DNA of 64,000 bases from an uncultured Armatimonadetes bacterium. Lineage in GTDB: Bacteria > Armatimonadota > UBA5829 > DTJY01. Position numbers and translations under genes: made by a program. The notes beneath the pieces are model-generated. The model did not search any database, was not told the origin of the DNA, and saw only the letters and a list, made by a program, of their open reading frames with translations. Where the stretch lies: contig OY970325.1 in NCBI GenBank assembly GCA_963717145.1, forward strand, positions 3,072,001 to 3,136,000. The letters run 5' to 3'. Below are positions 117 through 61,984 of the stretch, piece by piece. How positions within the stretch are numbered: the stretch's first letter is position 1; each line of letters begins with the position of its first letter.

Positions 117-184
117 GGAATGGTTGATGGTTCATGGGGCGATCCGCCGTTAGCCATCAACCATCTCCCCATTGACCATTCCCC
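117..184. repeat. ATGGTTG-heptamer hairpin element, copy 1
   Basis: GGAATGGTTGATGGTTCATGG...CCATCAACCAT...CCATTCC; same arms recur at 12270, 14632, 22901 and 34692. Confidence 0.85.
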
Positions 185-275
185 TGAATGTACCCCTTGA
201 TTTTCGTGGCATCCCCTGCTAATGTGGTATCGAGCCGGTTGGCAGACGGCGATCATCCCAGCAGAGGTGACATGA

Positions 276-1880
276 ATGAAATACACTACGACGGCATCCC
301 TCGGTATTCTCATGCTGCTTGTCGCGAGCTTAGGCCTGGCGCAAGACGCCGACCCGCGCCTGGATCAGAAGATCGGCACAAAGGCGCTCGGACAACCGCT
401 GGGCAGCTTCGTGACGGCGCTCGGCATCCAGACCGGAGTCACTGTGAAGGCCGACAAAGGCGTGGCAGACCACAAGATCACTGTCCTGACCAAGGACCTC
501 CCACTCTCCCAGCTACTCTCGGGAATCGCCGACGCCCTGCATATCCAACTCAGAAGCGCGAAGAGCGACAACGGCACACTGGTCTACGAGTTCTACGAGG
601 AAGCAGCTTCCAAGAAGAAGGCTGATCAGCTCTATAGAGATTCCAAAACCGGGCTTCAGAGGCAGACGGACCATGCCGCCGATGTGCTGAGGCTCAACCT
701 GCCGGCCGATGAGCTTCAGAAGAAGATCGAAGCCGACCCCCTGGCTTCGCCCTACCTCGGCGACGCGAGTTTCCGGACCGGGATCGAGGTGTACAGCAAG
801 CTTTCCGACAAAGACCGCGCGAGGTTGTGGAATGTGGGCTCGCTGCCGGTCTCGCTGGACAAGGTGCCCGAGGACACCCGCAAGAAGATCGTCGAGATGT
901 ATGACCAGAACCGCAAGCAGCGCGAGGAGGCGGACAAGGTCAAGCTTACGGACACAGTGGCGTCCCTGGCCTTCGAGATGCAGGACGATCCGCTGGCTGG
1001 AAGATCGCTCTCGTTCAACATAGTCGGCAGTGGGACACACGGCATGACCTACATGTATATGCAGGTCGAGGAATCCGGCCCTGATCTGCTTGGCAACGAC
1101 GAGTTCTTCACCGTCAAGGAGAACAAGGATACGGGGGAGTATGAGACTGAGACCAAACAGATCCCCGAGAAGCTGAACGTCGATGCCAACATCGAACTGC
1201 CGGACGTCACTATGCTCCAGGCGATGCAGCGACTCCACGACGCAACCGGGGTGAACATCATCGCCGACCACTATACTCCTCGCTATTCCGCTCAGGCCTA
1301 TATAGACAAGTGGGCGATCACCCGAGGCGAGACCATAGCGCATGAGGTCGAGAAGATCACAGAGGTATACGGGTGCAAGTGGAAGCTCGCGGGCGACGCA
1401 TGCGTCATTTGGAGCAAGTCCTGGTACGAGGATCGCAACGTCGAGATACCGATGTCGACCATTCAGCGATGGCAGTCGGCGTACCAGAAACTCCTGCAAT
1501 TCGGATTGCCTGAGCTTGTCGAGATGGCTCTTCTGAGTGACAAGCAGCAGAGAACGTTCCGCTACTATGGCCTGTCAGTCCCCGACTCGTTGTACCCGTC
1601 AATGCGCGCGCTCAGGTTCTATTCGTCCCTCGCTCCATCCGAGCTGGAGCAGGCGGCCTCCGAGCAGGGACTCTCGGCGGACAAGCTGGCGGAGGATCAG
1701 AAGCAGGCCTTGATCCACTGGCTGACATCGCCCGTGGGCCCGGAACGGAAGCCGTCGCAGTTCTCAGACGAATCAGCGCCGGGAGCGAACATCCGGATCT
1801 TTGAGAGGGACGCGGAGTGGGTTTTCCGCGTGCAGACATCAAAGGGACCAGTGCGAGAGGATATCTTGAAGCTCAAGTAA
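276..1880 (+). CDS. Secreted protein with N-terminal STN-like (secretin/TonB N-terminal) domain; paralog of 19443..21239
   Basis: Signal peptide followed by DPRLDQKI...GQPLG...QTGV; several motif blocks shared with 19443..21239. Confidence 0.65.
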   Translation: MKYTTTASLGILMLLVASLGLAQDADPRLDQKIGTKALGQPLGSFVTALGIQTGVTVKADKGVADHKITVLTKDLPLSQLLSGIADALHIQLRSAKSDNGTLVYEFYEEAASKKKADQLYRDSKTGLQRQTDHAADVLRLNLPADELQKKIEADPLASPYLGDASFRTGIEVYSKLSDKDRARLWNVGSLPVSLDKVPEDTRKKIVEMYDQNRKQREEADKVKLTDTVASLAFEMQDDPLAGRSLSFNIVGSGTHGMTYMYMQVEESGPDLLGNDEFFTVKENKDTGEYETETKQIPEKLNVDANIELPDVTMLQAMQRLHDATGVNIIADHYTPRYSAQAYIDKWAITRGETIAHEVEKITEVYGCKWKLAGDACVIWSKSWYEDRNVEIPMSTIQRWQSAYQKLLQFGLPELVEMALLSDKQQRTFRYYGLSVPDSLYPSMRALRFYSSLAPSELEQAASEQGLSADKLAEDQKQALIHWLTSPVGPERKPSQFSDESAPGANIRIFERDAEWVFRVQTSKGPVREDILKLK

Positions 1881-1905
1881 GCGGTCACACCTGGAGCGCT
1901 ATGGA

Positions 1906-1933
1906 GTTTTGCGCACCGCATATGAGGGCATAA
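1906..1933 (+). promoter_or_regulatory. Candidate SigB-type promoter
   Basis: GTTTTG-N14-GGGCAT(AA), resembling GTTTAA-N12-14-GGGWAT. Confidence 0.4.
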
Positions 1934-1978
1934 AGATATTGACGCAGGGCTCCACGCATCCTGCGGAGGAGACCCTGA

Positions 1979-2446
1979 ATGAGCATCGGCAGCTACATCG
2001 TAGTATTGATCGTATTGGGAATCGTCTCCGGACACCTGACGCATATCATGGTTTCCGGAGTCATCTTTCGTGGATTGCGTCATAAGATCAAGAAACTGGG
2101 AGAGACAAGAGGCGGCAAGTGGGAGTTCTTCAGCGAAGGGTTCCGCTGCCAGTTGTGCTCGGGAATCTGGTACTCCTCAATCATCGCGCTGTGGTTGACG
2201 ATCGCGATATACGTCCTCAAGCCTTCCTTGTGGGCAACCATTGCTGAGCACCCGCTGGGCCGGTTGGTGCCGTTTGCGTGGATCAGCCTATTCATCATGC
2301 AGGCATTCTTCATAGCGGCCGTGGGGCACTTGTTCCGCGAAATCGTCGGCCTGGTGGAGGATCAGCGGACTCACCAGGAAGGCGAGACCAACATGCTGGA
2401 GCAGACGATGCGCCGCATGAGTTCAGACGAGCCTGCGGACAAGTAA
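1979..2446 (+). CDS. Membrane protein, DUF1360-like
   Basis: Three hydrophobic segments and a C-x-x-C-x-x-x-W motif (CQLCSGIW); GGAGGAG RBS. Confidence 0.6.
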   Translation: MSIGSYIVVLIVLGIVSGHLTHIMVSGVIFRGLRHKIKKLGETRGGKWEFFSEGFRCQLCSGIWYSSIIALWLTIAIYVLKPSLWATIAEHPLGRLVPFAWISLFIMQAFFIAAVGHLFREIVGLVEDQRTHQEGETNMLEQTMRRMSSDEPADK

Positions 2447-3565: not shown

Positions 3566-3589
3566 AGGGGCGTGCAGAGTTTGAGCAAA

Positions 3590-3772
3590 CGACCCTGCTG
3601 TGTTCGTGATAGCTGAGGGGGTTTTGAGCCGACACTCAAAACATAAGGAGCCGGATTCGTCCGTGGAGTGGTAGCCCTGTAGTACTGGGGATTCGCGAAA
3701 GCGTACGTGAAGGCATCCGCCCGTTTTTCTACGGGTTCAAAAACTTGTTAGGCACACGGCATGGCGGGGTTT
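3590..3772 (+). ncRNA. ssrS: 6S RNA
   Basis: About 180-nt rod: 5' CCCTGCTGTGTTCG pairs with 3' CGGCATGGCGGGG; TTGAGCC/GGGTTCAA inner stem; AGGAG...GGCATCC bubble flanks; directly upstream of rarA and downstream of aspS as in Bacillus. Confidence 0.8.
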
Positions 3773-3799
3773 TTTGCGCCCCCTACTTAAGGACCACTC

Positions 3800-5197
3800 A
3801 TGCGACGCTCCAGCGATGATCAGCCCGTCGACCTCTTCGACCATGCCGTCGAACTGGCAGCGGGCACGGAAATGCCTCTCGCGGCACGCATGCGCCCGCG
3901 GAACCTCGACGAATTCATCGGCCAGGAGCACATAGTCGGACCGGGCAAGCTGCTCCGCCGAGCGATCGAGACCGACGAGCTGCGATCGGCCATCTTCTGG
4001 GGACCGCCCGGCTGCGGAAAGAGCAGCCTCGCATCCATCATCGCACAGACAACCAAGAGCCAGTTCGAAAGCTTCAGCGCCGTCACGTCAGGCGTCGCAG
4101 ATATCCGCAAGATCATCGAAAAGGCCAGGGAGCGCAGGAAGCTCTACGGCCGCAGAACAATCCTCTTCGTGGACGAAATTCACCGCTTCAACAAGGCCCA
4201 GCAGGACGCCTTTCTGCCCCACGTCGAGGACGGCACCATCGTCCTCATCGGGGCGACCACCGAGAACCCCTACTTCGAGGTCAACTCGCCGCTGATCTCC
4301 CGTTCCCGCATCTTCAAGTTCGAGCAGCTTGGAGACGAACAGATCGAGCGTATTATCCGCCGCGCGATCGAGGACAAGGAGCGCGGGCTCGGCGGCTTCA
4401 ACGTCGAGATGACGGACGAGGCCATGGAGTTCATCGTCGGGATTGCGAACGGTGATGCGCGCGGGGTGCTGAATGCGCTCGAACTCGCGGCGCTGACCGT
4501 CCCTCCCGACGAGAACGGCAGGCGGCTCGTGACGATGGAGATCGCCGAGGAAGCGGTTCAGCAGAGGGCGCTGAGTTACGATAAGGACGGCGACAATCAT
4601 TACGACATCATCTCGGCATTCATCAAGTCCATGAGGGGATCCGACCCCGATGCGGCGCTTTACTGGCTCGCCCGGATGATCTCTGCGGGCGAGGACCCGA
4701 GATTCATCGCGCGGAGGATCGTCATCCAGGCGGCGGAGGACATCGGGAACGCGGACCCGATGGCGCTGGTGGTGGCGACGGCGGCGGCACATGCGGTCGA
4801 ATACGTGGGGATGCCGGAAGCGCGGATACCGCTCGCCCAGGCGACGGTCTACCTGGCGTGTGCGCCCAAGAGCAATGCCTCCTATGTCGGTCTCAATCGG
4901 GCGCTGAAAGACGTCGCCGAGAGGCGCATTCAGCCGGTGCCGCTCCATCTCAGGGATACCAACTATCGGGGAGCGCGCCAGATGGGCCACGGCAAGGGGT
5001 ACAAATACCCGCATGATTTCCCAGGCGGCTATGTCGAACAACAGTACATGCCGGATGGCGTTCAGTCTCAGCCGTACTATGAGCCGACCACCAACGGGCG
5101 CGAGGCGAAGATCAAAGAACGGCTCGACCGGCTGCGGAGACACGGAGACGCGGAGACTGGGGGACGCGGGGACGCGGGGACGGAAGCATCCGAGTAG
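3800..5197 (+). CDS. rarA: Replication-associated recombination protein A (AAA+ ATPase)
   Basis: PLAARMRP, GPPGCGKS, DEIHRFNKAQQD, GATTENP, SAFIKSMRGSDPDA, YKYPHD. Confidence 0.97.
   Translation: MRRSSDDQPVDLFDHAVELAAGTEMPLAARMRPRNLDEFIGQEHIVGPGKLLRRAIETDELRSAIFWGPPGCGKSSLASIIAQTTKSQFESFSAVTSGVADIRKIIEKARERRKLYGRRTILFVDEIHRFNKAQQDAFLPHVEDGTIVLIGATTENPYFEVNSPLISRSRIFKFEQLGDEQIERIIRRAIEDKERGLGGFNVEMTDEAMEFIVGIANGDARGVLNALELAALTVPPDENGRRLVTMEIAEEAVQQRALSYDKDGDNHYDIISAFIKSMRGSDPDAALYWLARMISAGEDPRFIARRIVIQAAEDIGNADPMALVVATAAAHAVEYVGMPEARIPLAQATVYLACAPKSNASYVGLNRALKDVAERRIQPVPLHLRDTNYRGARQMGHGKGYKYPHDFPGGYVEQQYMPDGVQSQPYYEPTTNGREAKIKERLDRLRRHGDAETGGRGDAGTEASE
5136..5183 (+). repeat. GG(A/G)GAC(A/G)C octamer tandem repeat forming the RarA C-terminal tail
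   Basis: ggagacac ggagacgc ggagactg ggggacgc ggggacgc ggggacgg; encodes RHGDAETGGRGDAGT. Confidence 0.75.
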
Positions 5198-5403
5198 TGG
5201 CCGCGCCTCGGTGCCGGCCTACCTGTAGGGGCGAAGCATTGGCCCATCGGACTGCACCGACCTGCCGTACAGATCGCCAATGCTTCGCCCGGACTTGAGT
5301 GGGAGTAGGGGCGAAGCATTGGCCCGTCGGACTGCGCCGCGTTTCGGCAGACATCGCCAATGCTTCGCCCGGCTTTGAGTAGGAGTATGAGTAGGAGTAT
5401 GAG
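5194..5403. repeat. Cluster of GTAG-type REP elements and GAGTAG/GAGTAT hexamers
   Basis: GTAGTGGCCGCGCCTCGGTGCCGGCC at 5194; two direct copies of GTAGGGGCGAAGCATTGGC...GCCAATGCTTCGCCC (5225, 5305); hexamers 5377-5403. Confidence 0.85.
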
Positions 5404-6520
5404 CGGGCAGAAGGTCCTGGTGGCGATGAGCGGCGGAGTCGATAGCTCCGTCGCGGCGGCGATGCTCGTCCAGGAGGGATACGACGTCATCGGCGCGACG
5501 ATGCAGGTCTGGCCGACCGAGAGCGGTCCCGAGGGGGAGTTCGCTCGCGCGTGCTGCTCACTCAGCGCCGTGGAGGACGCCCGCAGAGTCGCCGCACGGA
5601 TCGGCATCCCGCACTACGTTCTAAACTTCAAGGATATCTTCCAGGAAGCGGTCATCGACAACTTCATCGAGGAGTATCGGCGCGGACGAACCCCGAATCC
5701 CTGCGTCAGATGCAACCGGTTCGTGAAGTTCGAGTCGCTGCTCGGGAAGGCTCGGTCGCTCGGCGCGGACCACGTCGCCACCGGACACTACTCGAGGATC
5801 GTGTTCGATGAACAGCGCGGACGATGGATGCTCAAGCGCGGAATCGACCGCTCGAAGGACCAGTCGTATGCGCTGTACAGCATGACCCAGGAGCAACTCG
5901 CGCACACCCTGATGCCGCTCGGCGGGATGGCGAAGGACGAGACCCGCCGCCTGGCCGCCGAACTCGGGCTGGCGGTTGCGAGCAAGCCGGACAGCCAGGA
6001 GATCTGTTTCGTCGAGGGGCGCGACTACCCGGGTTTCTTGCGCAGGACCGTGCCTGAGATCGCGACTCCCGGGCCGATTCTCGACACCTCGGGCGCGGTC
6101 GTCGGCGAGCACAAGGGGATCGCTTTCTACACGGTCGGGCAGCGCCGCCGACTGGGGATCGCCGCCGGGGAGCCGCTATACGTGGTGGAGATAGACCCGG
6201 CGAGAAACGCAGTGATCGTTGGCAGGGACAGCGATCTCTATGCGAGTGAACTCGTCGCGACGGATCTGAATTTCGTCCCTTTCGAAAAACCAGCAGGGAC
6301 AATTGCGGTCACGGCGAAGATCAGGTATAATATGAACGATTCGCAGGCTCTGCTCTCTCTCCGGGGAGAGGACCAGGCGCTGGTCAGGTTCGATTCGCCG
6401 CAGAGGGCGATCACTCCGGGGCAGGCCGTGGTATGTTATGATGGCGAGGACGTTGTCGGAGGCGGAACGATCGACGCCGTCCATCCTTCGATACACGCCC
6501 AGAGGCGCACTCAGGACTAG
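5399..6520 (+). CDS. mnmA: tRNA-specific 2-thiouridylase
   Basis: AMSGGVDSS, TPNPCVRCN, ATGHY, KDQSY, DSQEICF, YTVGQR, AITPGQ. Confidence 0.97.
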   Translation: MSGQKVLVAMSGGVDSSVAAAMLVQEGYDVIGATMQVWPTESGPEGEFARACCSLSAVEDARRVAARIGIPHYVLNFKDIFQEAVIDNFIEEYRRGRTPNPCVRCNRFVKFESLLGKARSLGADHVATGHYSRIVFDEQRGRWMLKRGIDRSKDQSYALYSMTQEQLAHTLMPLGGMAKDETRRLAAELGLAVASKPDSQEICFVEGRDYPGFLRRTVPEIATPGPILDTSGAVVGEHKGIAFYTVGQRRRLGIAAGEPLYVVEIDPARNAVIVGRDSDLYASELVATDLNFVPFEKPAGTIAVTAKIRYNMNDSQALLSLRGEDQALVRFDSPQRAITPGQAVVCYDGEDVVGGGTIDAVHPSIHAQRRTQD

Positions 6521-6590
6521 CGGAGCCCGTTTGCCCTGAGTGTTCGCTCCGGCGAATGTATCGAAGGGCAATCGAGATCGGGGGGCGATT

Positions 6591-8991: not shown

Positions 8992-9000
8992 CTATCGAAG

Positions 9001-9100
9001 TCCGTAGGGGCGATCCTTCTACGGTCGCCCGGTTCGTAGCGGTAATCGTTTGACAGCAGCCATGCCAACCGGGCGACCGTAGAAGGATCGCCCCTACGGA
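9001..9100. repeat. GTAG REP doublet (REPIN-like)
   Basis: Perfect 34-bp inverted repeat TCCGTAGGGGCGATCCTTCTACGGTCGCCCGGTT (9001-9034 / 9067-9100). Confidence 0.9.
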
Positions 9101-9130
9101 CCTCGATTCGGCAATCCATAAAGGTACCCC

Positions 9131-12263: not shown

Positions 12264-12269
12264 CGTGCA

Positions 12270-12358
12270 GAATGGTTGATGGTTCATGGTTGATGGTTAA
12301 TGGCGGAATGCCGGATGTCCCCCATTAACTATCAACCATGAACCATCAACCATTCCCC
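12270..12358. repeat. ATGGTTG-heptamer hairpin element, copy 2
   Basis: GAATGGTTGATGGTTCATGGTTGATGGTTAATGG...CCATTAACTATCAACCATGAACCATCAACCATTC fills the alr/peptidase spacer. Confidence 0.9.
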
Positions 12359-13309
12359 CTACCTCTTCCGCTGCTTATTTCGGGAGGCGAGAAGCCTCTG
12401 ATCCCGCACCTGCCTCCATTCGGCGATCCGGGTGACCAACTCGCCCTCGCGACCGGCCAGGTACTTCGCGATGGTCATCGTCCCTATAATGTGCAGGTTG
12501 ATCCGATAGTCGAGCTGATCGGATCGAGCGCCCGCCTGACGTGTCTCGAACAGGAAGGTCTTCGTGTCCGCGTGGATCGGGAAGTACCGATGTGCCAGCC
12601 TGGCGGGGCTGCTATCGTGAATCTGGTAGCTGCTGACCTCCATGTCATGGGTGTTCAGCATCCCGACAATCAGTCCCTGGATGTGAATCGATTCCTTCGC
12701 GACTTCCTGGGGCGCTCCACATAAAGGCCCGGCGCACTGCAGGTAATCTGTGCCTCGGTTGCCCGGGCTCAACTCGTGCTCGTCGATGACCACTTCCGGA
12801 TCGAACCGGTCGATCGCGGCCCGGACCGCCTTGATCTCGGGCTGGCTCAAGGTGAGCCAGTCGCGGTTCAGGTCCGCTCCCCTCGCGTTTCGTCGCGTAG
12901 AGCGTTCCGCGCCATCCGGGTTTGTCATCGGAACGATGAAGAATGAAACCCTGTTCAGCAGATCGGCGTCGTCCTCGCTCGCGCTGAGGACGAGGTCGGT
13001 GATCAGTTTGAGCATCGCCTCGGTGCTCGCGGGCTCATCTCCGTGCTGCCGGCAGATGACGAATACGCGGCGGGTATCCGCCGTCGCGACGTCCCGGTTG
13101 GCGAGGATGACGAGCGGGATCTCCCTCCCCTGCACGGACTTGCCGATCGATATGACGCACATCCGCCCGTTCCCGATGGCGTTGTCGGCCAACTCCAGGG
13201 ACGCGAGGTTCGACATCATCTGCTTGTGAGACGTGAGGCCGGGCACCGCTGAGCAGGCGCTCGCGATCAGGACGGCCAGCAGGATACAGGCCGGTACTAC
13301 TCTTCGCAC
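12359..13309 (-). CDS. Secreted M14 zinc carboxypeptidase
   Basis: IGKSVQGR, QHGDEPAS, NPDG, RRNARGADLNRD, IDEHE; signal peptide. Confidence 0.88.
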   Translation of the reverse strand: MRRVVPACILLAVLIASACSAVPGLTSHKQMMSNLASLELADNAIGNGRMCVISIGKSVQGREIPLVILANRDVATADTRRVFVICRQHGDEPASTEAMLKLITDLVLSASEDDADLLNRVSFFIVPMTNPDGAERSTRRNARGADLNRDWLTLSQPEIKAVRAAIDRFDPEVVIDEHELSPGNRGTDYLQCAGPLCGAPQEVAKESIHIQGLIVGMLNTHDMEVSSYQIHDSSPARLAHRYFPIHADTKTFLFETRQAGARSDQLDYRINLHIIGTMTIAKYLAGREGELVTRIAEWRQVRDQRLLASRNKQRKR

Positions 13310-13346
13310 TTCTTACTCCTTAATTACTACTACAGTCACGTGTCTC

Positions 13347-13436: not shown

Positions 13437-13478
13437 CAGAGCAGAAGGCGCCCGTGAGGACACGGGCGCTCCCTGTGT

Positions 13479-48530: not shown

Positions 48531-51500
48531 TCCCCGTAGGGCGAACCGCGAAGAGCCGCGTCTGGCCGGGATCGAAGGGGCAGTCGATCTCCTGCCCTGA
48601 GCCCTCCCAACCATCGAAGAGGTCGCGGATGGTGACTGGCGTCGGCCACGCGAGCTTCACGCTTCCGGCTTTCGGACTCGTGACGCTGACGAGTTCGCGG
48701 GAAGAGTAGACGCAGTATTCCTGCGGCGCGTAGAAGTGAACTCCCGCCTCCTGTGCCCATTGCCGGATCAACGCGGTCGAATGAGGCGGAATCCCACACC
48801 AGATCAGCCGCCCGCCGTTCGCGAGAGGCCGCTCCGCGCCGGCGGACTTCCCGTCGGAGTAGCGGAGGAATCCCTCGCCCTCGATGAAGGCGCGCGGTCG
48901 GACCGTGGCGTCGGTGTCGGTGATGGGCGTGCCGTCGGTCAGGGTCATTCGGGCGGGCAAGGAGGCGTCCTCGATCTGGATCGGGAGGCCGAGGAGACCG
49001 GATACCGCGTCCGGCTGCCATACGCCCTGGACGGGATTGACCAGTCCGGGAGCGCCGACGACAATGATCGTGCGCCCGCCCTTCTCGATCAGCCGCTCGA
49101 GCCGGGCGATGTCCTCGGGCTTCGCGGCGGTGGCACAGGCGATCACGACGAGCTTGATCCGCTCGGGCAGGCGATCGAGGTCCGAGAGCAGCCACACACC
49201 GACCGGAGCGCCGGTCCGCCCGCAATGGAAGAGCAACTGCGTGTTCGTCCAGCGCAGGTACTCCGACTCGGGGCATGACCAGGCGAACGTCGGGCCGTCG
49301 ACGACGAACGCGATCTCCTCGGTCGGCGTCCGGTCGTACTTCAGAGCCTCACCCGCGACCCGGATCTGGCGCGCGAAGTCGGCCTGCAGACCGGCGTCGT
49401 GATGCCAGCTCGGCATGAGGGAGAACCACTCGTTCCCCGCACCGTGGACCGCGTTGTTGGCGGTCTCGCGCCTCTGCATCTGGATCGCGCCGTTCTGCGG
49501 ATTGCCCGGGTCGTACTCCCGATACCAGTGGAGCGGATGAAGCCACGAGAAGAGATCGTTGCTGTCACAGTAGATCTTGCCCGCCGCGAGGACGCTCTCG
49601 GTCGCCGAGATGTAGACGCTGTAACCGTTGAGGAAGTCGCGGAAGTTGTGCAGGGGGACGCCGCCGATCACATCGACGTTCGGATCGGCGAGCACCTTCT
49701 CGACCGCGAAGTTCCCGCCGATCGGGCCGCGGAACTCGCCGGCGAGCTGGATGACGTAGCCGAAGAAGACGGCGTTGATCGAGCGCCCGCCGGTCTCCTC
49801 CTTCGACACCTTCGCGAGCCGGCAGATCGTTTCCGAGGTGAGGTCGGCGTAGTATTGGTTGTATGCCGCTGCCATCTTTCGCTCAGGCGGGTAGAAGTCG
49901 TAGCCGGGACAACTGCGCTCCGAGGGAGGCGGGATCGGTGCGCCGAAGCGGTCCTCGTTCGGCTGACTGTAGTCGCCGAACAGCTTGTCGTTGCTGCCCC
50001 ACGCGAACCACTCCGACGTAACCTCGCCCATCAGCCACATTCCGAGCAGGCGGCTCGCCCACGGTTGGGCCTTGCAGTACCGGAGGAGCTTCCGCAGCTC
50101 GAGTTCCTGGTCGCGATACCACTCCTCGGAGGCGATCGATCCGGCACGGTTGCCGATTCCCTCTTCCCAGATGAGGCCGTTGATGCGGACGAGCTGATCC
50201 TCGTGGGTCTGATCCCAGATCGGTGGGAGGCGGAGGTTGATCGCGAGGAAGATCATAGCGTCGGGGTTGGCGGCGAATGCGCTTGCGACCTGCTCATCGA
50301 CCGAGCCGTAGTCGTAGACGCCGGGCCTGGGACAGTAGCGCCCGAGGTCGCACTGGATGGTGAGCACGCTCGCGCCCGATCGGCCGAAGTCGGCGGCGTT
50401 GCCGGGTTGGAAGTCGGGGGACTGGTAGCCGGTCCATGGGAATGGCTTGCCATTGACGAATAGCGTCGGCCGGCCATGATACATCCGCCGCTCGACGCGC
50501 GGGAGTTCGTTGGCGACGGATTGTGTAGTGGCCGTGCCTCCGTGCCGGCCAAATCCGCCATCGCATGTAGTGGCCGTGCCTCCGTGCCGGCTAACCACGT
50601 CGCTGGCCGGCACGGAGGCACGGCCACTACATGCGATCTCGACCTCGGCCTCCGGTCCATCGGCGCGGTATCCGTCGGCCACCAACCCGACCGTCGCGGG
50701 ACCGGGCGCGAGGTAGAATGGGACCGTCCGCTTCACCCGGCATCGGCCCTTCGCCAGATCGTCGATCTCCCCCGGAGTTAACCGGATGCGCCACACGACC
50801 CACGGCTCCCGCCGCACCTCCAGGTCGATCACCCGACCACCCGGCTGTAGGGGCGTGCCTTGTGCCGCCTGCGACGGCGTACCGGGCGGTGCAAGGCACG
50901 CCCCTACGGCGTGAGAATCCACATCCGGCGGCACAAGGCACGCCCCTACAGCGTCGATGGCGAATTCGGCCTTCTGCCCCGGATGGAGGATCGGCGGACA
51001 CCTCAGCTTGGTCACCTGGAGGCCGGGTGCGGGCGGGTAGTGGTATGTGCAATCGTTGAGGAAAAGCTCGTAGTCCGCATCCTTCTCGAGACCCTGGATG
51101 GAGAGCCGCATCACACCGGGATACCTGGGCGTCGGCGGCTCGGTACGGTCGGGCCAGCGCGCATCGGCGAACCGGAACTCGACCGTGCGCTCGGTCATCG
51201 GCTCGACCTTCTGCGGCTCACCGAGCACCCACTCCACCGCCTGATTCGCGGATCCCGGATGCCAGGGGAACTCCGCATACTGCGCCTTGACGAGGACCGA
51301 CTTGGCGGAGTTGTTGCGCACCCGGAAAGAGAGGCTGGTCGGCTCACGACGGATCAGCGGGCACTCGGCACTGAGGGATGCCGTGTCCGTGCCATTCGAC
51401 CTGATCCGCCAGCGCGTGCTCCATCCGCCACTCCGCCTCACGAGCGACATCTCGTTCACGGCGAACATCGACGCCCGCTCGAAGACGCCTTCGCCCGGCG

Positions 51501-51642
51501 AGCAGGCCCGCATCTCGAAGGTCGGGAGCCGGTCCACCATCGACCGGGAGTATGCATCGTCAGGGTATGTGGTCATCGCCGATTCCCCCTGGATACCAAG
51601 CAGGCATAGAAGCGCCACCAGCACGATCCGGTTCTTGTGCAC
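48523..51642 (-). CDS. Large secreted putative glycoside hydrolase (beta-galactosidase-like) with two in-frame REP insertions
   Basis: Signal peptide; GRPTLFVNGKP, GVYDY, SIASEEW, EWFAW, DYSQP, FFGY, AQEAGVHFY; family assignment tentative. Confidence 0.7.
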   Translation of the reverse strand: MHKNRIVLVALLCLLGIQGESAMTTYPDDAYSRSMVDRLPTFEMRACSPGEGVFERASMFAVNEMSLVRRSGGWSTRWRIRSNGTDTASLSAECPLIRREPTSLSFRVRNNSAKSVLVKAQYAEFPWHPGSANQAVEWVLGEPQKVEPMTERTVEFRFADARWPDRTEPPTPRYPGVMRLSIQGLEKDADYELFLNDCTYHYPPAPGLQVTKLRCPPILHPGQKAEFAIDAVGACLVPPDVDSHAVGACLAPPGTPSQAAQGTPLQPGGRVIDLEVRREPWVVWRIRLTPGEIDDLAKGRCRVKRTVPFYLAPGPATVGLVADGYRADGPEAEVEIACSGRASVPASDVVSRHGGTATTCDGGFGRHGGTATTQSVANELPRVERRMYHGRPTLFVNGKPFPWTGYQSPDFQPGNAADFGRSGASVLTIQCDLGRYCPRPGVYDYGSVDEQVASAFAANPDAMIFLAINLRLPPIWDQTHEDQLVRINGLIWEEGIGNRAGSIASEEWYRDQELELRKLLRYCKAQPWASRLLGMWLMGEVTSEWFAWGSNDKLFGDYSQPNEDRFGAPIPPPSERSCPGYDFYPPERKMAAAYNQYYADLTSETICRLAKVSKEETGGRSINAVFFGYVIQLAGEFRGPIGGNFAVEKVLADPNVDVIGGVPLHNFRDFLNGYSVYISATESVLAAGKIYCDSNDLFSWLHPLHWYREYDPGNPQNGAIQMQRRETANNAVHGAGNEWFSLMPSWHHDAGLQADFARQIRVAGEALKYDRTPTEEIAFVVDGPTFAWSCPESEYLRWTNTQLLFHCGRTGAPVGVWLLSDLDRLPERIKLVVIACATAAKPEDIARLERLIEKGGRTIIVVGAPGLVNPVQGVWQPDAVSGLLGLPIQIEDASLPARMTLTDGTPITDTDATVRPRAFIEGEGFLRYSDGKSAGAERPLANGGRLIWCGIPPHSTALIRQWAQEAGVHFYAPQEYCVYSSRELVSVTSPKAGSVKLAWPTPVTIRDLFDGWEGSGQEIDCPFDPGQTRLFAVRPTGTS
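50524..50631. repeat. Three GTAGTGGCCGTGCCTCCGTGCCGGC REP units in-frame in the hydrolase
   Basis: Two direct and one inverted copy; encode CSGRASVPA...RHGGTATT...RHGGTATT; same family as 5194. Confidence 0.92.
50846..50950. repeat. Three GTAGGGGCGTGCCTTG(T/C)xCCGCC REP units in-frame in the hydrolase
   Basis: One forward and two inverted copies; encode VGACLVPP...VGACLAPP...AAQGTPLQ. Confidence 0.92.
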
Positions 51643-51759
51643 AATTCGGTCCTCCTCCGTTTCGGCCAGTATAGAGGATAAGCGCGCGCGTATCAACCGG
51701 GAGGATACGGAGGGTCACCGGCGGAACAGTGAGATGACCGATGACGAAATGGAGAGCAT

Positions 51760-53532: not shown

Positions 53533-55058
53533 AAGCTGTTGGAGTGATGATCATGCTGATCGCTGTGACATGCATCGGACGGGGAAACGCCCGGACGATC
53601 CTGCTCGTGGACGATCATGATGTCCTCTATCGCTCCGGCACCGAGCGCGTGCTGAACCCCGCAGAGCGCTTCGAGGGCAATCCGGTCATCAAGCAGGACA
53701 AGCTCTGGGAGACTGCGCTCGGATGGGTCAGCGCCTATCGTGACCCCACGAGCGGGAAGTACCAACTCTGGTACCAGGGCTATGCGGGAGGTCGGGCGCA
53801 GCAGAAGACTCACCGATGTGTCGTTTGCTATGCCGAATCGGACGACGGCGTCCATTTCAGGAAGCCGAACCTCGGCCTCTTCTCGTTCAATGATATCAAA
53901 GAGACGAACATCGTGCTCATAGCAAACGGCGGCTACTCCGACCGCTATGGGAACGCGGTGGTCTTCGATCCGCGCGACAAAGATCCGAGCCGCCGGTACA
54001 AGATGGCCTACACCGATTTCGCGATCGACGAGGGCAAGGAATACCCCGGCCTGAACGTGGCGTTCTCTCCCGACGGCATCCATTGGACGAAGTACCCCAA
54101 AGCGCCGCTCCACAGGACGTCATATGGACACTATGAGATCCCGGTTCCCTATGAGGATGAGACCGGCGGCGAGCTGTGGCCCAACCCGCTCACGATGTCC
54201 GATGCGGTCGATGTCTTCTATGATCCCGTGCGCAAGGCCTTCGTCAGTTACGCCAAGATGTGGATCGACGGCCCGGCCGGCGGAATGCACTGGAAGCACG
54301 CGATGGGCCGGATCGAGAGCAAAGACTTCATCCACTGGGACGACCCCGAGCTGGTGCTCACGCCGGATGACCTCGACCCGCCGAGCGTCGAGTTTCACAC
54401 CTCGCCGGTCTTCTACTACAACGACCGCTATTTCTGCCTGAACCAGATACTGAACCGCGCGGTCGGTGGCGGGGTCATGGACATCGAACTCATGGTCAGC
54501 CACGATGGTTACGCGTGGGAGCGGCCGTTCAGGAAGGAGTTCTTCCTGCCACGCAGTCAGCCGGGAAGATTCGACAGCGGCTCGATCCTGACGAATTCGA
54601 CGCCGGTGATCCTCGGAGACGAGATGCGATTCTACTACGGCGGCTACCAGGGCGGCGCGACGGGTGGCGACGACGAGAACATGCCGAGCGGGATAGGGTT
54701 CGCCTCGATCCCGCTCGATCGGTTCGCCGGCATCAGACCTGTGGCAAAGAGCGATCAGCCGACGCTCCGGAAGCCTCTGGAGCACATCGGGCAGGTCACG
54801 CTCAAGCCGATCGATTCGAGTAAGGTCAAGAGCATCACGCTCAACGCCGACGCGTCCAACGGCTCGATCCGCGTGGAACTGCTCAACTCCCGAGGCCGGA
54901 GAATCCGAGGCTTCTCGGCAGACGACTGTGTCCCGATCAAGGGCGATTCCCTCGCGCACGAGGTGGCGTGGAAGGGCAAGACTGACGTGCCCCACGAGCG
55001 ATGCATGATCCGCATCCACCTCGACAATGCGACGGTGTTTGCACTCTCAGTCCTGTAG
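53529..55058 (+). CDS. Secreted beta-propeller glycoside hydrolase-like protein
   Basis: GNPVI, YAESDDGVHF, FSPDGIHW, SKDFIHW, SHDGYAW (Asp-box-like), FYYGG. Confidence 0.7.
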   Translation: MKAVGVMIMLIAVTCIGRGNARTILLVDDHDVLYRSGTERVLNPAERFEGNPVIKQDKLWETALGWVSAYRDPTSGKYQLWYQGYAGGRAQQKTHRCVVCYAESDDGVHFRKPNLGLFSFNDIKETNIVLIANGGYSDRYGNAVVFDPRDKDPSRRYKMAYTDFAIDEGKEYPGLNVAFSPDGIHWTKYPKAPLHRTSYGHYEIPVPYEDETGGELWPNPLTMSDAVDVFYDPVRKAFVSYAKMWIDGPAGGMHWKHAMGRIESKDFIHWDDPELVLTPDDLDPPSVEFHTSPVFYYNDRYFCLNQILNRAVGGGVMDIELMVSHDGYAWERPFRKEFFLPRSQPGRFDSGSILTNSTPVILGDEMRFYYGGYQGGATGGDDENMPSGIGFASIPLDRFAGIRPVAKSDQPTLRKPLEHIGQVTLKPIDSSKVKSITLNADASNGSIRVELLNSRGRRIRGFSADDCVPIKGDSLAHEVAWKGKTDVPHERCMIRIHLDNATVFALSVL

Positions 55059-55154
55059 GGAACGTGCCGCCGTGCCGTTCCGCTCTGTTGGAAGTCTGCA
55101 GACACTGATCGCATGCGATAGAGAGCGGAACGGCACGGCGGCACGTTCCCTACA
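55054..55154. repeat. GTAG REP doublet overlapping a stop codon
   Basis: Perfect 33-bp IR TGTAGGGAACGTGCCGCCGTGCCGTTCCGCTCT; its TAG is the stop of the upstream gene. Confidence 0.9.
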
Positions 55155-56232: not shown

Positions 56233-57708
56233 GTAACAGTTCAGGCTTGTGGATCATTTTGCGAGAGCAGTGAGAGTTTTTCCGACATTGTCGGCTTGCA
56301 ATAGGAAGGACCCTTGGCCGGGCGGGTGGAACATGCCTGTGTGGAAGAGTTCGACGGTCTGACAAGAGAAGAATTGGTGGGCATTGTCCTGGAGCAGCGG
56401 GAGATGATCCAGCGTCTCGTCAAGGAACTGGAGGATCTCAAGGCAAAGCTCTCGGGTGGCGGCAGTTCCACCCCCATACCTGACTGGGTCAAGCCGAACC
56501 GCAAAGAGCGCCGGGCAGCCGAACGAAAGAAGCGCCAGAAGTCGTTCGTGCGCAGGCGGGAGACACCCACCCGTGTAGTCGAGCACGCGCACTCGAAGTG
56601 TCCGGACTGCGGCCGAGCGCTCACAGGGGGCACGGTAAAGAGACTCCGCCAAGTCATCGACATCCCCATCGTGCCTGTGGACGTAGTCGAGCACAGGTTC
56701 ATCGCCAGAAGATGCGGATACTGTGGCAAGAGTCATGTGCCGAAGGTTGACCTTTCCGGCCAGGTTGTAGGCAAGCATCGGGTAGGCGTGAACCTGATGA
56801 GCCTGATATCGTATCTTTCGACGGTAGGTCGCATGACAAAGCGGACGATACAGGGATTGCTGAAGGCTCTGTATGGTCTTCAGCTCTCTGTGGGAGAGAT
56901 AAGCGAGATATTGCACACGGTGGCAGACTGTGGCAAAAAAGAGAAAGAGCGGCTACTCTCGCTTGTACGTGGAAGCCCATACATAAACGCAGACGAGACG
57001 GGCTGGAGAGAGGATGGGCTGAACGGATACATCTGGACCTTCTCCACTAAGAACGTGCGATACTTCATCTACCGGCGGAGTCGGAGTGGAGAGATCCCGA
57101 AGGAAACGATAGGCGGCGACTACGAAGGGGTAGTGGTAACGGATTGCTATGCCGGATACAACCCGGTAGTTGCAGACCGCCAGATATGCTGGGCACATCT
57201 GGCCAGGGATCTGCACAAACTGAAGGAGAGGAACGCGGACGACACGGGCGTCATCGCATGGGCGGATGCGGTGAAGGGTGTTTACGATCGGGCAAAGGAG
57301 TTCCGGAGCAAGAAGGCGGAGGTTCGCAAGTGGAAGCGAGTACTCTTCGAGGAAGAGGTAGAGGCGCTCTCAGGTCCGTATGTCGGCTCAGATGCTCCAC
57401 AGCAGACGCTGGCAAAGAGATTCATAGATCGCTTGCACGAGTTGTTCATGTTCGTAGAGTACCCGGAAGTACCGTCGGACAACAATGGCGCAGAACGAGC
57501 GCTGAGGCCGTGTGTGATCGCCCGCAAGGTATGCGGAGGCACACGAAGCGCGAAGGGTTCCGAGACAAAGATGACGCTCATGAGTCTGTTTGGCACATGG
57601 CACGTCAGGGGTCTGGACATGCTCGAATCATGCAGGCAACTGCTCGCAGGCAAGTCTGTCCTCTTCCCTGCCTGATCAAACTCGTTATCCCCAAGCGTGA
57701 ACTGTTAC
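56233..57708 (+). mobile_element. IS66-family element, single-ORF type (1476 bp)
   Basis: IR GTAACAGTTCAGGCTTG / CAAGCGTGAACTGTTAC; 8-bp duplication CCCTGACG (56225, 57709). Confidence 0.96.
56314..57675 (+). CDS. IS66-family transposase (start uncertain)
   Basis: CPDCG, CGYCG, ADETGW, VTDCYAGY, QICWAHLARD, DNNGAERALR. Confidence 0.94.
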   Translation: MAGRVEHACVEEFDGLTREELVGIVLEQREMIQRLVKELEDLKAKLSGGGSSTPIPDWVKPNRKERRAAERKKRQKSFVRRRETPTRVVEHAHSKCPDCGRALTGGTVKRLRQVIDIPIVPVDVVEHRFIARRCGYCGKSHVPKVDLSGQVVGKHRVGVNLMSLISYLSTVGRMTKRTIQGLLKALYGLQLSVGEISEILHTVADCGKKEKERLLSLVRGSPYINADETGWREDGLNGYIWTFSTKNVRYFIYRRSRSGEIPKETIGGDYEGVVVTDCYAGYNPVVADRQICWAHLARDLHKLKERNADDTGVIAWADAVKGVYDRAKEFRSKKAEVRKWKRVLFEEEVEALSGPYVGSDAPQQTLAKRFIDRLHELFMFVEYPEVPSDNNGAERALRPCVIARKVCGGTRSAKGSETKMTLMSLFGTWHVRGLDMLESCRQLLAGKSVLFPA

Positions 57709-59156: not shown

Positions 59157-60744
59157 CAGCCTGTCTGAGAATTCCCCGCTATGTGGGTGAGTTTCCCATC
59201 TGCGGGGTCGCGCTGGCTGCTGTTCGATAGTGTTTTTCGCCGGATTTCCGGCGAGGGTCTGTAAAGACCCCTTGTACCTTGATAATCAGCCTGATCCAGG
59301 TCATATATCTACGTATCGAAGATCGATTTCCGGTCGCCGTATCGGTATAGCTTCAGCATGTTGTGCCCAAGACACGCAAGCGTCCACTCCGACTTCGCTT
59401 TCGCAAGGCCTCGGAGTAGGAAGCCTCGGAAGTTCCGTGCGCTCTTGATCTGGCCGAACACCGGCTCTACCGTCTCCTTCCGCCTCCCGTAGATCTTTCG
59501 GCCAAGAGGAGTCAAGAGCTTTGCTCTCTGGCGATCTGCGGCGGATTGCTTTGCCGGATCAAGGCAGGAAGGCGCCGTCGGCTCTTTGCCATGACGTTGT
59601 CTGTCAGGCGGTATATAAGCGTCGATCCCTTGCTGCTCGACCATCTCTATGTTGTCGCTGCTGAAGTATCCGGCATCGGCGGATAGTTCTTCCGGTTTCT
59701 TTCCGGTGTTCTCCTTGATTGCCTCGATCATGTCACTAAGATGCGGTGAGTCCGCTGCCTGGTTCGTGAGATCACACGCCACTACAATCTGATGATCTGC
59801 GTCTACCGCAGCTTGTCCGTTGTATGCCTGCACGAAGGCTTTCTTTGCGTCCTTCATTATCCGGCTTTCCGGGTCTGTGAAGTTCCGCTGTGCCTTCCCT
59901 TCCGGCTCTGTCTTTACGGGCCCCGGCTCTCTGCCGCGAGGCTTCTTCCCGGATGCTTCCTGCTCCGCCTTCTCTTGGGCTCGCATCGCTTCTTCGGCTG
60001 ATGCTCGCTCTTTGGCCTCGCGCTCCAGCGCTTCTTTTGCTTCCCTGATCTTGGCGAGCCGCTTCTCTCTGGTTGCGAGTTCCTCCGGGAGTTCGTCTCC
60101 TCGGCGGTCAAGACCATATTCCGCGTCTTCCTGGTCGTCCACAGAAAGACCCTTCGCAAGGAGCGCCTCGATCTCAGCCTGAAGCTCTTTTTCTTTCTCG
60201 ACCATCCGAGAGTAGCTCATGGCGGAGTGCTTGCTTGCGTTGGCAAGCAGCTTTGTTCCGTCTATGGCTATGTGTTTCATCGACACAAGCCCGGCGCTTG
60301 CGCATAGCCTGAGCACTTGCACAAACAGGTCCGCAAGGGACTTGAGATGCCTCTTCCTGAACTCGCTTATCGTGCGGAAGTCGGGATGATTTCCTGCCGC
60401 AAGCACCCGGAAGGCTACATCTTCATACGTGGCCAGGGAGAGCTTTCGAGATGAATACACTCCCCGGCACAAACCGTAGAATATGATCTTTGTAAGCATT
60501 GCCGGATGGAACGGCGGCGCTCCTCGGGCCTCTTTCTCGTATGAGGCGTATATCGCGGAAAGGTCGAGTCCGTCTACGACATCGCTCACAAAGTATGCGA
60601 GATGTCCTTGGGGAAGCCACTCCGAGATCGACGGCGGCATCAAGAATATCTGGTCGGGTTGATAAGGAAGGTATGGCTTGCTCATACCAGTATTTTACTA
60701 TATATCTGGCACCTTGTGCCAGAGGTTATTTCGTGGACAGGCTG
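59157..60744 (-). mobile_element. IS1182-family insertion sequence, copy 2 (1588 bp)
   Basis: Same IRs as copy 1; CTAG duplicated at 59153 (includes thiC stop) and 60745. Confidence 0.96.
59309..60685 (-). CDS. IS1182-family transposase
   Basis: Matches 31911..33287 apart from several N-terminal substitutions. Confidence 0.96.
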   Translation of the reverse strand: MSKPYLPYQPDQIFLMPPSISEWLPQGHLAYFVSDVVDGLDLSAIYASYEKEARGAPPFHPAMLTKIIFYGLCRGVYSSRKLSLATYEDVAFRVLAAGNHPDFRTISEFRKRHLKSLADLFVQVLRLCASAGLVSMKHIAIDGTKLLANASKHSAMSYSRMVEKEKELQAEIEALLAKGLSVDDQEDAEYGLDRRGDELPEELATREKRLAKIREAKEALEREAKERASAEEAMRAQEKAEQEASGKKPRGREPGPVKTEPEGKAQRNFTDPESRIMKDAKKAFVQAYNGQAAVDADHQIVVACDLTNQAADSPHLSDMIEAIKENTGKKPEELSADAGYFSSDNIEMVEQQGIDAYIPPDRQRHGKEPTAPSCLDPAKQSAADRQRAKLLTPLGRKIYGRRKETVEPVFGQIKSARNFRGFLLRGLAKAKSEWTLACLGHNMLKLYRYGDRKSIFDT

Positions 60745-60756
60745 CTAGTGGGGTGT

Positions 60757-60803
60757 AAGCATGCTGAAGCAAGCTCTTCGTATTAGCTTGCTTCAGCATG
60801 CTT
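60757..60803. repeat. 19-bp perfect inverted repeat
   Basis: AAGCATGCTGAAGCAAGCT-9 nt-AGCTTGCTTCAGCATGCTT. Confidence 0.8.
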
Positions 60804-60847
60804 GATATGCGCTAGGCCCATTATTGATGATGGGACGGGGGATCGGC

Positions 60848-61855
60848 GTGAAGCTCTCCGAACTCGGTGAAGAAGCGCTGATAGAGAGAATCGTGAAGGA
60901 GCACGGACTCCCTGTGTCCGGGCCGGGACTGATCGTCGGCGTGGGGGATGATGCCGCTGTACTCGATACAGGTGCGAATGACTACATCGTCGTCACCACC
61001 GACATGCTCATCGAGGGCACGCACTTCCGCTTCGACATCAACACGCCCTACCAACTCGGCTGGAAGTCGGTCGCCGCCAACATCAGCGACATCGGCGCGA
61101 TGGGCGGCCTCCCGACCTGGACCTTCGTCTCCATGGCATTTCGTGCGGAGATGGATGTCGCGTTCGTCGACGACCTCTACCGAGGCATGACGGAGTGCGC
61201 CCGGCGGTTCGGTAGCATGGTGGTCGGCGGCGACACGAACGCGGTCGATGCCGAGTCGGTGATCAGCATCACCCAGATGGGGACGGTCGAGCCGGAGCAC
61301 GTCGTTCGGCGCGTCGGCGCGCGTCCGGGTGATCGGATACTCGTCACCGGGCGGCTCGGTGACTCGCGCGGAGGGCTCGAACTGCTCCTCAGGTATGGGC
61401 TGGATGAGGCAACCCGTATGCACCCCCGGCTCGCGGAGGCCCACCTGATGCCGATCCCTCGAGTCCCGGAGGCCCGTGCGGCGGTTCAGACCGGCGGCCT
61501 GCGCGCGATGATGGACCTGAGCGACGGATTGGGCGCGGACCTGCCGAAGTTGTGCAAGGCGAGCGGTATCGGAGCCGTCGTCTACGCGGACCGGCTCCCG
61601 ATCAGCGAGGACCTGCGGGCTGCGGCGGCTCTCCTCGGCAAGGATGCGGTGGACCTGGCGGCGGGCGGCGGTGAGGACTTCGAGTTGCTCATGGCGGTCT
61701 CACCGGATGGTGTCGAGCAGGTGATTGAGGCCATTCAGGAAGCCACCGGCACCCGCGTGACGGAGATTGGCGAGATCACCGATGGCCGCTCGGTGGAGAT
61801 CGACCGCAACGGCGACAGAAAGCCGCTCAAAGGCGGGTGGGAGCACTTTGCATGA
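60848..61855 (+). CDS. thiL: Thiamine-phosphate kinase
   Basis: GVGDDAA, TTDMLIEGTHF, NISDIGAMGG, VGGDT, MDLSDGL, GGEDFELL, GWEHF. Confidence 0.96.
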   Translation: MKLSELGEEALIERIVKEHGLPVSGPGLIVGVGDDAAVLDTGANDYIVVTTDMLIEGTHFRFDINTPYQLGWKSVAANISDIGAMGGLPTWTFVSMAFRAEMDVAFVDDLYRGMTECARRFGSMVVGGDTNAVDAESVISITQMGTVEPEHVVRRVGARPGDRILVTGRLGDSRGGLELLLRYGLDEATRMHPRLAEAHLMPIPRVPEARAAVQTGGLRAMMDLSDGLGADLPKLCKASGIGAVVYADRLPISEDLRAAAALLGKDAVDLAAGGGEDFELLMAVSPDGVEQVIEAIQEATGTRVTEIGEITDGRSVEIDRNGDRKPLKGGWEHFA

Positions 61856-61857
61856 AG

Positions 61858-61984
61858 CTCCCCTCCTTGATGAGGAGGGGTTGGGGACGGTCCGCTTGGC
61901 GGCTTGGCGGTTCCATCTCCGGATGGCGACGCCGTGGGAACCCCCTCGGCCCAGAGGCCGGTCCCCCTTCGTAAGGGGGACATC
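61858..61984. repeat. Hairpin elements CCCCTCCTT...AGGAGGGG and TCCCCCTTCGTAAGGGGGA
   Basis: 61939-61984 is an exact inverted copy of 38924-38969; a related hairpin lies at 61858-61886. Confidence 0.85.

Follow-up and report, generated by a model that had tools for sequence, protein, structure and literature searches.

Small palindromic repeats, mostly of described kinds, in a 64-kb stretch of an Armatimonadota genome

A window of 64,000 nucleotides (the whole stretch analysed; bases 3072001-3136000 of contig OY970325.1) from the genome of an uncultured Armatimonadota bacterium carries small palindromic repeats in its gene spacers, within its proteins and in an RNA leader. The window very probably samples a genome-wide load of such repeats, belonging to several kinds that are already known: repetitive extragenic palindromes (REPs) tagged with GTAG, inverted dimers of a BoxC/PIT-type repeat, and hairpins built of tandem heptamers. 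The GTAG doublets would be mobilised by RAYTs (REP-associated tyrosine transposases), whose genes lie at single loci outside the window, every one of them with flanking REPs of a family of its own (a REPtron); judging from the literature, these enzymes would act on single-stranded hairpin DNA. The heptamer hairpins are found for the most part directly behind stop codons; close relatives differ in them, and they gain or lose whole units. Elements of all these kinds would persist where they are harmless, i.e., in spacers, at stop codons, in in-frame surface loops and linkers, and in the dispensable apical loop of a T-box leader. The host genome (G000), a soil-type Armatimonadota genome consisting of one 5.37-Mb contig with 60.6% G+C, was compared with a set of 30 relative genomes (G001, etc.), of which the closest are G001 and G006 (82% and 80% identity in Alr, respectively). 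Coordinates are those of the window unless given as genome positions.

With both arms exact over 14 nt and loops no longer than 110 nt, 22 distinct palindrome axes were counted in the window, versus a mean of 0.05 (maximum 1) in 20 triplet shuffles and one in a plain-reverse control. The whole genome contained 1215 palindromes with exact 14-nt arms, versus 31 in the control. A looser census, with at least 14 paired positions, gave 1236 palindromes, which sorted into 32 families of at least three doublets each, 10 pairs and 234 singletons; 14 of the genome's palindrome families are represented in the window, where palindrome density is close to the genome average. Chance or assembly artefact, as a source of the palindromes, is already refuted by these controls and retains next to no probability: reversed-pattern controls also gave zero matches, and independent metagenome contigs carry the same flanks.

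Arm matches were counted on both strands of the whole genome with up to four mismatches. F1 (the type found at 5194) gave 324 matches, F4 (50846) 165, F2 (5225) 92, F3 (9001) 89, F10 (38872) 52, F8 (45171) 41, F9 (60757) 32, F6 (12003) 26, F5 (55054) 7, and F7 (13347) 5. All of the families are thus multi-copy, from F1 down to F7, and each palindrome named in the initial annotation was recovered, at most a few bases from where it had been placed. That several families co-exist was borne out (14 in the window, at least 32 in the genome); to call them unrelated was too strong, as F1 to F5 share the GTAG-tagged type. Two elements had been missed: one of family 2, across the mnmA stop (6482-6574), and a heptamer run read in frame (34684-34742). 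Conversely, the palindrome at 18242-18277, with a second copy at 63871-63906, is not a micro-element, since its 10 exact copies lie inside IS3-family elements.

The REPs of F1 to F5 are short, GC-rich, imperfect palindromes with an unpaired GTAG at one end, and those of F1 to F4 are dispersed in many copies, most of them outside genes. F1 forms 116 head-to-head doublets, 100 of which are 64-66 nt long, and a 15-nt loop was found in 33 of 66 F4 doublets. Judging from these features, the doublets of F1 to F5 are most probably classical REP elements, or REPINs (REP doublets forming hairpins). In the window, an F1 singlet (5194-5220, plus strand) begins where the MgsA/RarA-type gene ends, at its stop codon, and is followed by two F2 doublets, formed by an 80-nt unit present twice (5225-5370). 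The F2 doublets are missing from the corresponding spacer of G001, and the spacer between rarA and mnmA measures about 56 nt in G001 versus 198 nt in G000. An F3 doublet (8994-9107) lies between the sigma-factor and AI-2E transporter genes, which in G001 are separated by 12-15 nt, without the F3 element. An F5 doublet (55054-55154) likewise starts at a stop codon, that of the gene before it. F1-like REPs are also present in 6 of the 30 relatives, with 5-28 matches each versus 320 in G000.

GTAG-tagged REPs and REPINs reportedly go with RAYT genes (Bertels and Rainey, in 2011). The initial annotation had noted that no cognate mobiliser was visible, which holds for the window but not for the genome. 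The whole genome was searched with the Y1 transposase profile PF01797, and genes were then screened for repeats at their flanks. The profile had seven matches, and an eighth gene was recovered through its repeat flanks. With NCBIfam NF047646 (cut-off 80 bits), five of the seven RAYT-like genes scored above the cut-off (91.5-101.6 bits) and two below (74.7 and 59.3 bits); the remaining one of the eight genes is an IS200/IS605-type TnpA (NF033573, 88.4 bits versus a cut-off of 55). Each Y1 transposase gene has its own repeat family at its flanks. The gene at genome positions 3783800-3784330 has F1 arrays on both sides, and the RAYT at 827030-827575 is flanked by F4. F2 flanks the RAYT-like gene at 4204934-4205650 (59.3 bits) and is present in two further copies inside its reading frame; this gene may have been inactivated by its own repeats. 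The RAYT at 241896-242408 is flanked by family 13 and by an F3-like array, which differs from F3 by paired changes that preserve the stem, and the RAYT-like gene at 4878239-4878751 is flanked by family 3. Finally, the IS200-type TnpA gene at genome positions 1557593-1558141 has pairs of the F9 hairpin on both sides; the F9 hairpin in the window (60757-60803) is the same, and F9 is thus probably the flanking hairpin of this TnpA. The listing of flanking genes therefore yielded Y1 genes for F1, F4, F2, the F3-like array and F9. In the genome flank screen, no cognate RAYT was found for F5, the sole F5-flanked gene being hisB-like. Two other small genes were also seen between repeats: a 114-aa GIY-YIG gene (genome 4323478-4323822), flanked by three and one copies of family-17 repeats, and the gene at genome 3157745-3158137, which has AAATTCG-type arrays at its flanks and whose product we take to be four-helix-bundle-like.

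The accessible text of Di Nocera et al. (2013; PMC3733652) describes several GTAG families per genome, repeat-specific REPtrons, intragenic REPs and REPs that supply TAG stops, and it proposes that REPs downstream of genes act as RNA elements. To the extent of that text, the repeats studied here are alike in the GTAG at one end, the GC-rich stem, the head-to-head doublets of fixed size, the multiple families that each flank a RAYT of their own, and the copies at stop codons and within genes. They differ in the host phylum, Armatimonadota, and in the high intragenic share of F4 (21 of 65 doublets) and family 13 (12 of 23). A literature search found no paper combining "Armatimonadetes" with "repetitive extragenic palindromic".

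The arms and loops of the REP doublets bear on their age. Both variable positions of the F1 arm are matched between the two arms in 88 of the 116 doublets, where 25% would be expected, and all 116 loops differ from each other. Pseudomonas REPINs reportedly include identical "master" copies; here, in contrast, none of the 116 F1 doublets shares its loop with another. For F1, the 72 doublets whose loop measures 15 nt had arms 95% alike and loops 54% alike (32% for shuffled loops), with values of 98.5% versus 53% for F4 and 96.8% versus 50.5% for F2, arm identities being inflated by the mismatch limit applied in arm finding. Decayed F1 arms are nearly absent, with 278 matches at up to two mismatches versus 324 at up to four. 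The loops look like diverged descendants of one ancestor; the arms, in contrast, have been kept intact. Because REP arms outlast loops by far, their intactness would reflect maintenance and not recent arrival. The initial annotation had taken perfect arms as a sign of recent spread, a view that the all-distinct loops and the F1 figures do not support. Arm maintenance is the simpler reading, whether it proceeds by selection, RAYT-dependent turnover or hairpin-templated correction, the mechanism being a matter of inference. We also considered the flanks beyond the F1 core as a sign of insertion into older hairpins and rejected this sign, as complementarity falls to background after three positions; for F4, flank complementarity beyond the REP core was partly seen, at positions 4-8.

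The palindrome at 12003, F6, appears by its sequence to be an inverted dimer of a BoxC/PIT-type repeat. In 25 of 5426 E. coli genomes, unannotated intergenic sites match one F6 arm with 87.5% identity over 46 nt, and the F6 blocks follow the same order, CCCTCGCCC - GGGAGAGGG - GGGTGAGGG, as the TMECO sequences printed in the available part of Holder et al. (2015; PMC4666352). As far as that part goes, the BoxC/PIT/TMECO motif is described there as an intrastrand-triplex motif, widespread in bacteria and also found as tandem inverted pairs. F6 shares with it the three-block order and the occurrence as both single units and tandem inverted pairs; it differs in that 12 of its 24 doublets are in frame within genes and in that the arms of the copy in alr are complementary at 46 of 46 positions.

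This copy forms part of a 114-nt in-frame insertion (about 11991-12104, minus strand) that adds 38 residues to Alr and contains the perfect 97-nt F6 palindrome (12003-12099). The insert is absent in all 30 relatives, as judged by split matches, and in all seven aligned N-termini; at this place, 139 nt of the G000 alr region correspond to 22 differing nt in a contig of about 87% identity. In an AlphaFold model of Alr (11-row alignment; mean predicted local distance difference test score, pLDDT, of 72.5), insert residues 54-90 were unstructured (pLDDT below 50) and placed between an intact helix and strand of the barrel. Two further insertions were found in a 1057-aa frame (48523-51696), which is a real gene, as G013 encodes a protein 62-68% identical to its product. 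Three F1 REPs (50523-50633) and three F4 REPs (50842-50955) are read in frame within it (minus strand), and the orthologue in G013 lacks both the 36-aa F1 stretch and the 32-aa F4 stretch. In the acetolactate-synthase-like gene, a lone ATGGTTN-type run (34684-34742, minus strand) adds 10-15 residues in frame, in the linker between the middle and C-terminal domains. The proposal that the elements add peptide segments was therefore confirmed for these three proteins, and aligning orthologous loci showed the elements to be missing from the corresponding sites in relatives. Stop codons are affected as well. The family-2 element (6482-6574) provides mnmA with its last codons and stop, and the ACT-domain gene owes its own to an ATGGTTN heptamer hairpin (22909-22993), which has no counterpart there in G006 or G001. 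G001 has no element at the mnmA stop, in the rarA/mnmA spacer or in the sigma/AI-2E spacer. G006 contains dozens of copies with 90-98% identity to the family-2 arm (6482-6523), and on its contig 67 many of these follow one another at intervals of about 150 nt; such conservation across genera is unusually high for a repeat.

Rickettsia palindromic elements (RPEs) are palindromic repeats found in frame within genes of known proteins. The inserts described here resemble them in behaviour only, as an in-frame palindrome lengthens the protein and leaves the reading frame intact. In sequence the two are unrelated: the available text of PMC3733652 gives RPEs a CGTC tag, which is absent from F6, F1 and F4 (GTAG or no tag here).

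Genome-wide, an open frame with coding sequence in both 150-nt flanks was found at 141 of the 1236 palindromes, a test that 75 of 2312 intergenic and 443 of 500 genic controls passed and that, like the distance counts below, depends on gene calls from a crude home-made caller. The in-frame share varied between families: it was about half for F6 (12 of 24 doublets), family 13 (12 of 23) and family 14 (11 of 22), 21 of 65 for F4 and 10 of 128 for F1, and zero for F2 (0 of 41), the F5 type (0 of 20) and the ATGGTTN hairpins (0 of 53). The stop-codon content of the repeat fits the absence of ATGGTTN hairpins from reading frames, but does not account for the remaining families.

Within the repeat load, the ATGGTTN heptamer hairpins have found the least explanation; they are lineage-specific and show a fast turnover. 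Searching the genome for tandem arrays gave 169 with a period of 7, versus 62 with a period of 8 and 6 with a period of 9, and the pattern ATGGTTNATGGTTNATGG, with up to one mismatch, had 482 matches versus none for the reversed control. Of 158 ATGGTTN loci, 59 have two clear arms and 99 have one, 27 of the latter folding onto a degenerate partner; the ATGGTTN arm always comes first. Only 13 of the 158 loci are inside predicted genes. Where a gene end lies next to a locus, it is within 20 nt in 105 of 170 cases (median 8.5 nt), versus 409 of 2078 for random placement, while gene starts are not enriched (30 of 146 versus 445 of 2546). In the window, ATGGTTN hairpins (family 6) were found at 117-164, between the stop of the M14 peptidase gene and the start of alr (12270-12359), in the divergent spacer between the FemAB-like gene and the TonB-dependent receptor gene (14625-14700), and at the above-mentioned end of the ACT-domain gene. 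A GGTGTTG hairpin lies between convergent genes (34089-34143).

Among the relatives, ATGGTTNATGGTTNATGG had 60 and 61 matches in G007 and G009, 28 in a single array in G013, and at most three in each of the other 26 (one in G001, three in G006). Upstream of alr, G006, G004, G007 and G003 have no hairpin and G001 has a short CAGGAGT hairpin, a unit with 34 matches in G000, 33 in G001 and 16 in G006. In contigs of about 93% identity (three runs, two studies), a 32-nt direct AAGTCYR array takes the place of the 95-nt hairpin at 12264-12358. Judging from these other units at the site, the ATGGTTN hairpin upstream of alr seems to have recently taken the place of an older array. The spacer between the ACT-domain and DUF711 genes is also without a hairpin in G006.

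Heptamer hairpins were also found within a probable RNA switch. A probable T-box leader (RF00230; 35983-36311, minus strand) was identified upstream of the acetolactate-synthase-like gene as a full-length match in a relaxed Rfam scan (85.2 bits versus a cut-off of 93; E = 4e-19), and Stem I, the T-box sequence and the terminator are readable in its sequence. The orthologous leaders of G001 and G006 are also full-length model matches (E ≤ 2.6e-17 for all three). The apical loop of Stem II carries a 67-nt insert, a TGATCGG/CAGTGAT heptamer hairpin (36120-36192, minus strand). The leader of G006, 267 nt long, has no Stem II insert, whereas that of G001, at 373 nt, has a longer CAGTAAC hairpin in Stem II in which both arms are changed. 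A second hairpin, of GGTGTTG units, is followed by a U-run and lies past the T-box terminator and ahead of the ribosome-binding site (35893-35956, minus strand); behind the terminator, G001 has a related GGGTTAT hairpin and G006 a non-heptamer hairpin. The hairpins of G000 and G001 at these two leader sites indicate that heptamer units change in place on both arms. The entry of repeats into RNA leaders, as initially proposed, was borne out for this T-box.

These leader hairpins also bear on whether heptamer hairpins move at all. They might be immobile, growing in place where hairpins already exist, by replication slippage in 7-nt steps, while selection on an RNA or DNA hairpin holds the arms complementary, a possibility to which we give appreciable but lesser weight. 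The leader hairpins of G000 and G001 are co-located and made of related units that differ on both arms (CAGTGAT versus CAGTAAC and GGGTGTT versus GGGTTAT, with a non-heptamer hairpin in G006 at the second place), and unit number ranges from 2 to 5 across loci. No heptamer hairpin is bracketed by a transposase in the genome flank screen, in which no gene bracketed ATGGTTN hairpins as a likely mobiliser. Slippage is at odds, however, with the presence of a single unit, ATGGTTN, at 158 loci of G000 versus one and three matches in G001 and G006, and with the replacement of an unrelated AAGTCYR array at 12264-12358, which looks like arrival and not local growth.

It is less likely still that the hairpins are RNA elements selected by the host, as 3'-end stabilisers, terminators or translation barriers, with repetition as a by-product. 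The crowding of ATGGTTN loci at gene ends (no more than 20 nt away at 105 of 170, with a median distance of 8.5 nt, versus 20% at random) would suit such a role, as would the unit itself, which contains TGA and, read from sequence, exposes it in three frames through its 7-nt period; the U-run behind the GGTGTTG hairpin at 35893 and the proposal in PMC3733652, in the text available, for REPs downstream of genes point the same way. Nevertheless, 14 of 107 lone-arm loci and 8 of 59 hairpin loci are in divergent spacers without a transcript end (e.g., 14625-14700), the orthologous genes of relatives manage without hairpins, and a U-run is missing at most of them.

An insertion sequence (IS) of the IS481 family is associated with these arrays. 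This 1.08-kb element (e.g., genome 442016-443100; NF033577, 217.5 bits, just below the 224-bit cut-off) has 12 copies of 99.7-100% identity, all outside the window. Since 12 of 12 copies are inside ATGGTTN arrays, in either orientation, the arrays are its landing site. As a candidate mobiliser of ATGGTTN it was rejected: no match at E 1e-30 was found in G007 or G009, both of which carry such arrays (about 60 pattern matches each), although this is weak evidence as the assemblies are fragmented. IS1397/ISKpn1-type insertion sequences target REPs. The IS481-family element is like them in sitting inside repeats, but its target is a heptamer array and not a REP.

The heptamer hairpins are tandem-heptamer arrays, similar to the short tandemly repeated repetitive (STRR) sequences of cyanobacteria, set as inverted arms. 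Cyanobacterial STRR units include CCCCAGT, TTGGTCA and CAACAGT. None of these was matched by the units found here (ATGGTTN, GGTGTTG, CAGTGAT and others; ACCCCAG once). The available part of PMC4679880 describes intergenic TAACTGA arrays of Beggiatoaceae, with 169 direct sets and one inverted set in the Beggiatoa genome. The Beggiatoaceae arrays, as far as described there, and the cyanobacterial STRR sequences share with ours tandem 7-nt units that are almost all non-coding and near gene borders, with multiple unit types per genome and a patchy distribution across relatives. In contrast to Beggiatoa, at least 86 of the 158 ATGGTTN loci are inverted array pairs able to form hairpins, and they lie behind stop codons, not before start codons. 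One heptamer hairpin here, in addition, lies within a T-box Stem II, a further difference from both.

A doubtful alternative is that the heptamer hairpins are a separate class of fast-moving elements, copied by a process of their own that works on 7-nt units; a second such reading is that REP arms are actively homogenised. If the former, the hairpins would land at stop codons, displace older arrays, enter RNA switches and linkers and serve the IS481-family element as landing sites. If the latter, homogenisation would be RAYT-dependent or hairpin-templated while loops drift, and the intact REP population would be old and not recently spread.

Several points weigh against the reading of known repeat kinds spread in this way, in addition to the inflated arm identities and the crude gene calls mentioned above. 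That RAYTs act on these REPs is extrapolated from other species, no transposition event having been observed, and the link between F7 and the RAYT at genome position 4478919 consists of weak similarity only. The flank screen gave no candidate mobiliser for F5, F6, F8, F10 or any heptamer family. The 1057-aa frame matches no Pfam family, and its protein was matched in only 3 of the 12 relatives searched. In all three genera, the T-box leader scores below the Rfam gathering score of 93 (85.2 bits in G000, 82.7 in G001 and 92.1 in G006). Stop-codon content was rejected as a general filter for entry into genes (Spearman 0.25, p = 0.16, 32 families), and F2, with 4.4 open frames, yet has none of its 41 doublets in frame.

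The initial annotation had seen here an undescribed system of several non-autonomous elements, with mobilisers yet to be found. Such a system seems quite improbable. It could draw on the lack of a mobiliser candidate for F6, F8, F10, F5 and the heptamer hairpins, and on the other small repeat-bracketed genes (GIY-YIG at genome 4323478 and four-helix-bundle-like at 3157745). However, the commonest families of the window (F1, F4, F2 and F3-like), together with F9, have cognate Y1 transposase genes, and F6 matches a described repeat. Genomes with multiple GTAG REP families, RAYTs and intragenic copies are, moreover, already present in the accessible text of PMC3733652, and the 12003 palindrome matches the BoxC/PIT motif of PMC4666352. 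The findings that the initial annotation had named as fatal to its own view were not made: the families are not limited to a few copies, are not fixed at the same sites and do not behave purely as terminators.

No new kind of system thus emerges, as almost all components map onto described kinds. The GTAG families would be new members of the REP/RAYT group, in a phylum for which none was found reported. With seven RAYT-like loci, each with its own REP family, the genome is a dense natural case outside the usual proteobacterial hosts, and of the BoxC-type dimers that it also holds, half are translated. Heptamer hairpins can be traced at orthologous sites from an empty site to one unit type and then another, and clean before/after pairs are available for the tolerance of a hairpin insert by proteins and by a T-box riboswitch. 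Conserved arms with scrambled loops, finally, provide a data set for asking if REPINs are being maintained or are simply young.

The window contains further repeats. An F7 doublet (family 27, with four doublets genome-wide) lies at 13343-13440, and an F8 doublet, a hairpin tagged with TTTGGAGTGCG, lies in a divergent spacer (45171-45265). Two direct F10 units are found behind the HlyD-like gene (38872-38956, plus strand), with a third, reversed, at 61939-61970. An octamer run, GCGGAGAC repeated six times, occupies the 3' end of the MgsA/RarA-type gene (5134-5182, plus strand). Hexamer runs of GAGTAN stand directly before start codons at 5376-5403 (plus strand, before mnmA) and 18547-18580. Since similar runs precede mnmA in G001, G006 and G004, the GAGTAN run is conserved across genera, unlike the other repeats.

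Among the 56 frames of the window, Pfam matches identified housekeeping genes (MgsA/RarA-type ATPase, mnmA, sigma factor, alr and FemAB-like), as well as genes for a TonB-dependent receptor, the acetolactate-synthase-like thiamine pyrophosphate (TPP) enzyme, thiC, thiL and tsaE. Insertion sequences identified in the same way were IS3 (17356-18509 and 62459-64000), an IS5/IS1182-like pair (31911-33287 and 59309-60685) and IS66 (56314-57675). A 478-bp unit is present twice with 99% identity at 62459-63414, within the IS3-type region, corresponding to a tandem duplication of part of the IS3 orfA. The sole Rfam match at gathering level within the window was a 6S RNA (3589-3774); a tRNA gene search of the window found none, and no TPP riboswitch was found upstream of thiC. 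The DUF711 gene (23006-24374) consists of two overlapping frames (profile positions 2-166 and 189-412), which suggests a frameshift or a sequencing error. In the region 30596-34044, the IS5/IS1182-like copy (31911-33287) has a TPR-repeat frame to its left and another to its right, and may have split one TPR gene; the copy at 59309-60685 scores equally. Finally, the region 40294-43633 encodes an 825-aa protein that combines TIR, WD40 and Ras-like domains and, next to it, a DUF4365 protein; the two genes may form a defence-type pair.

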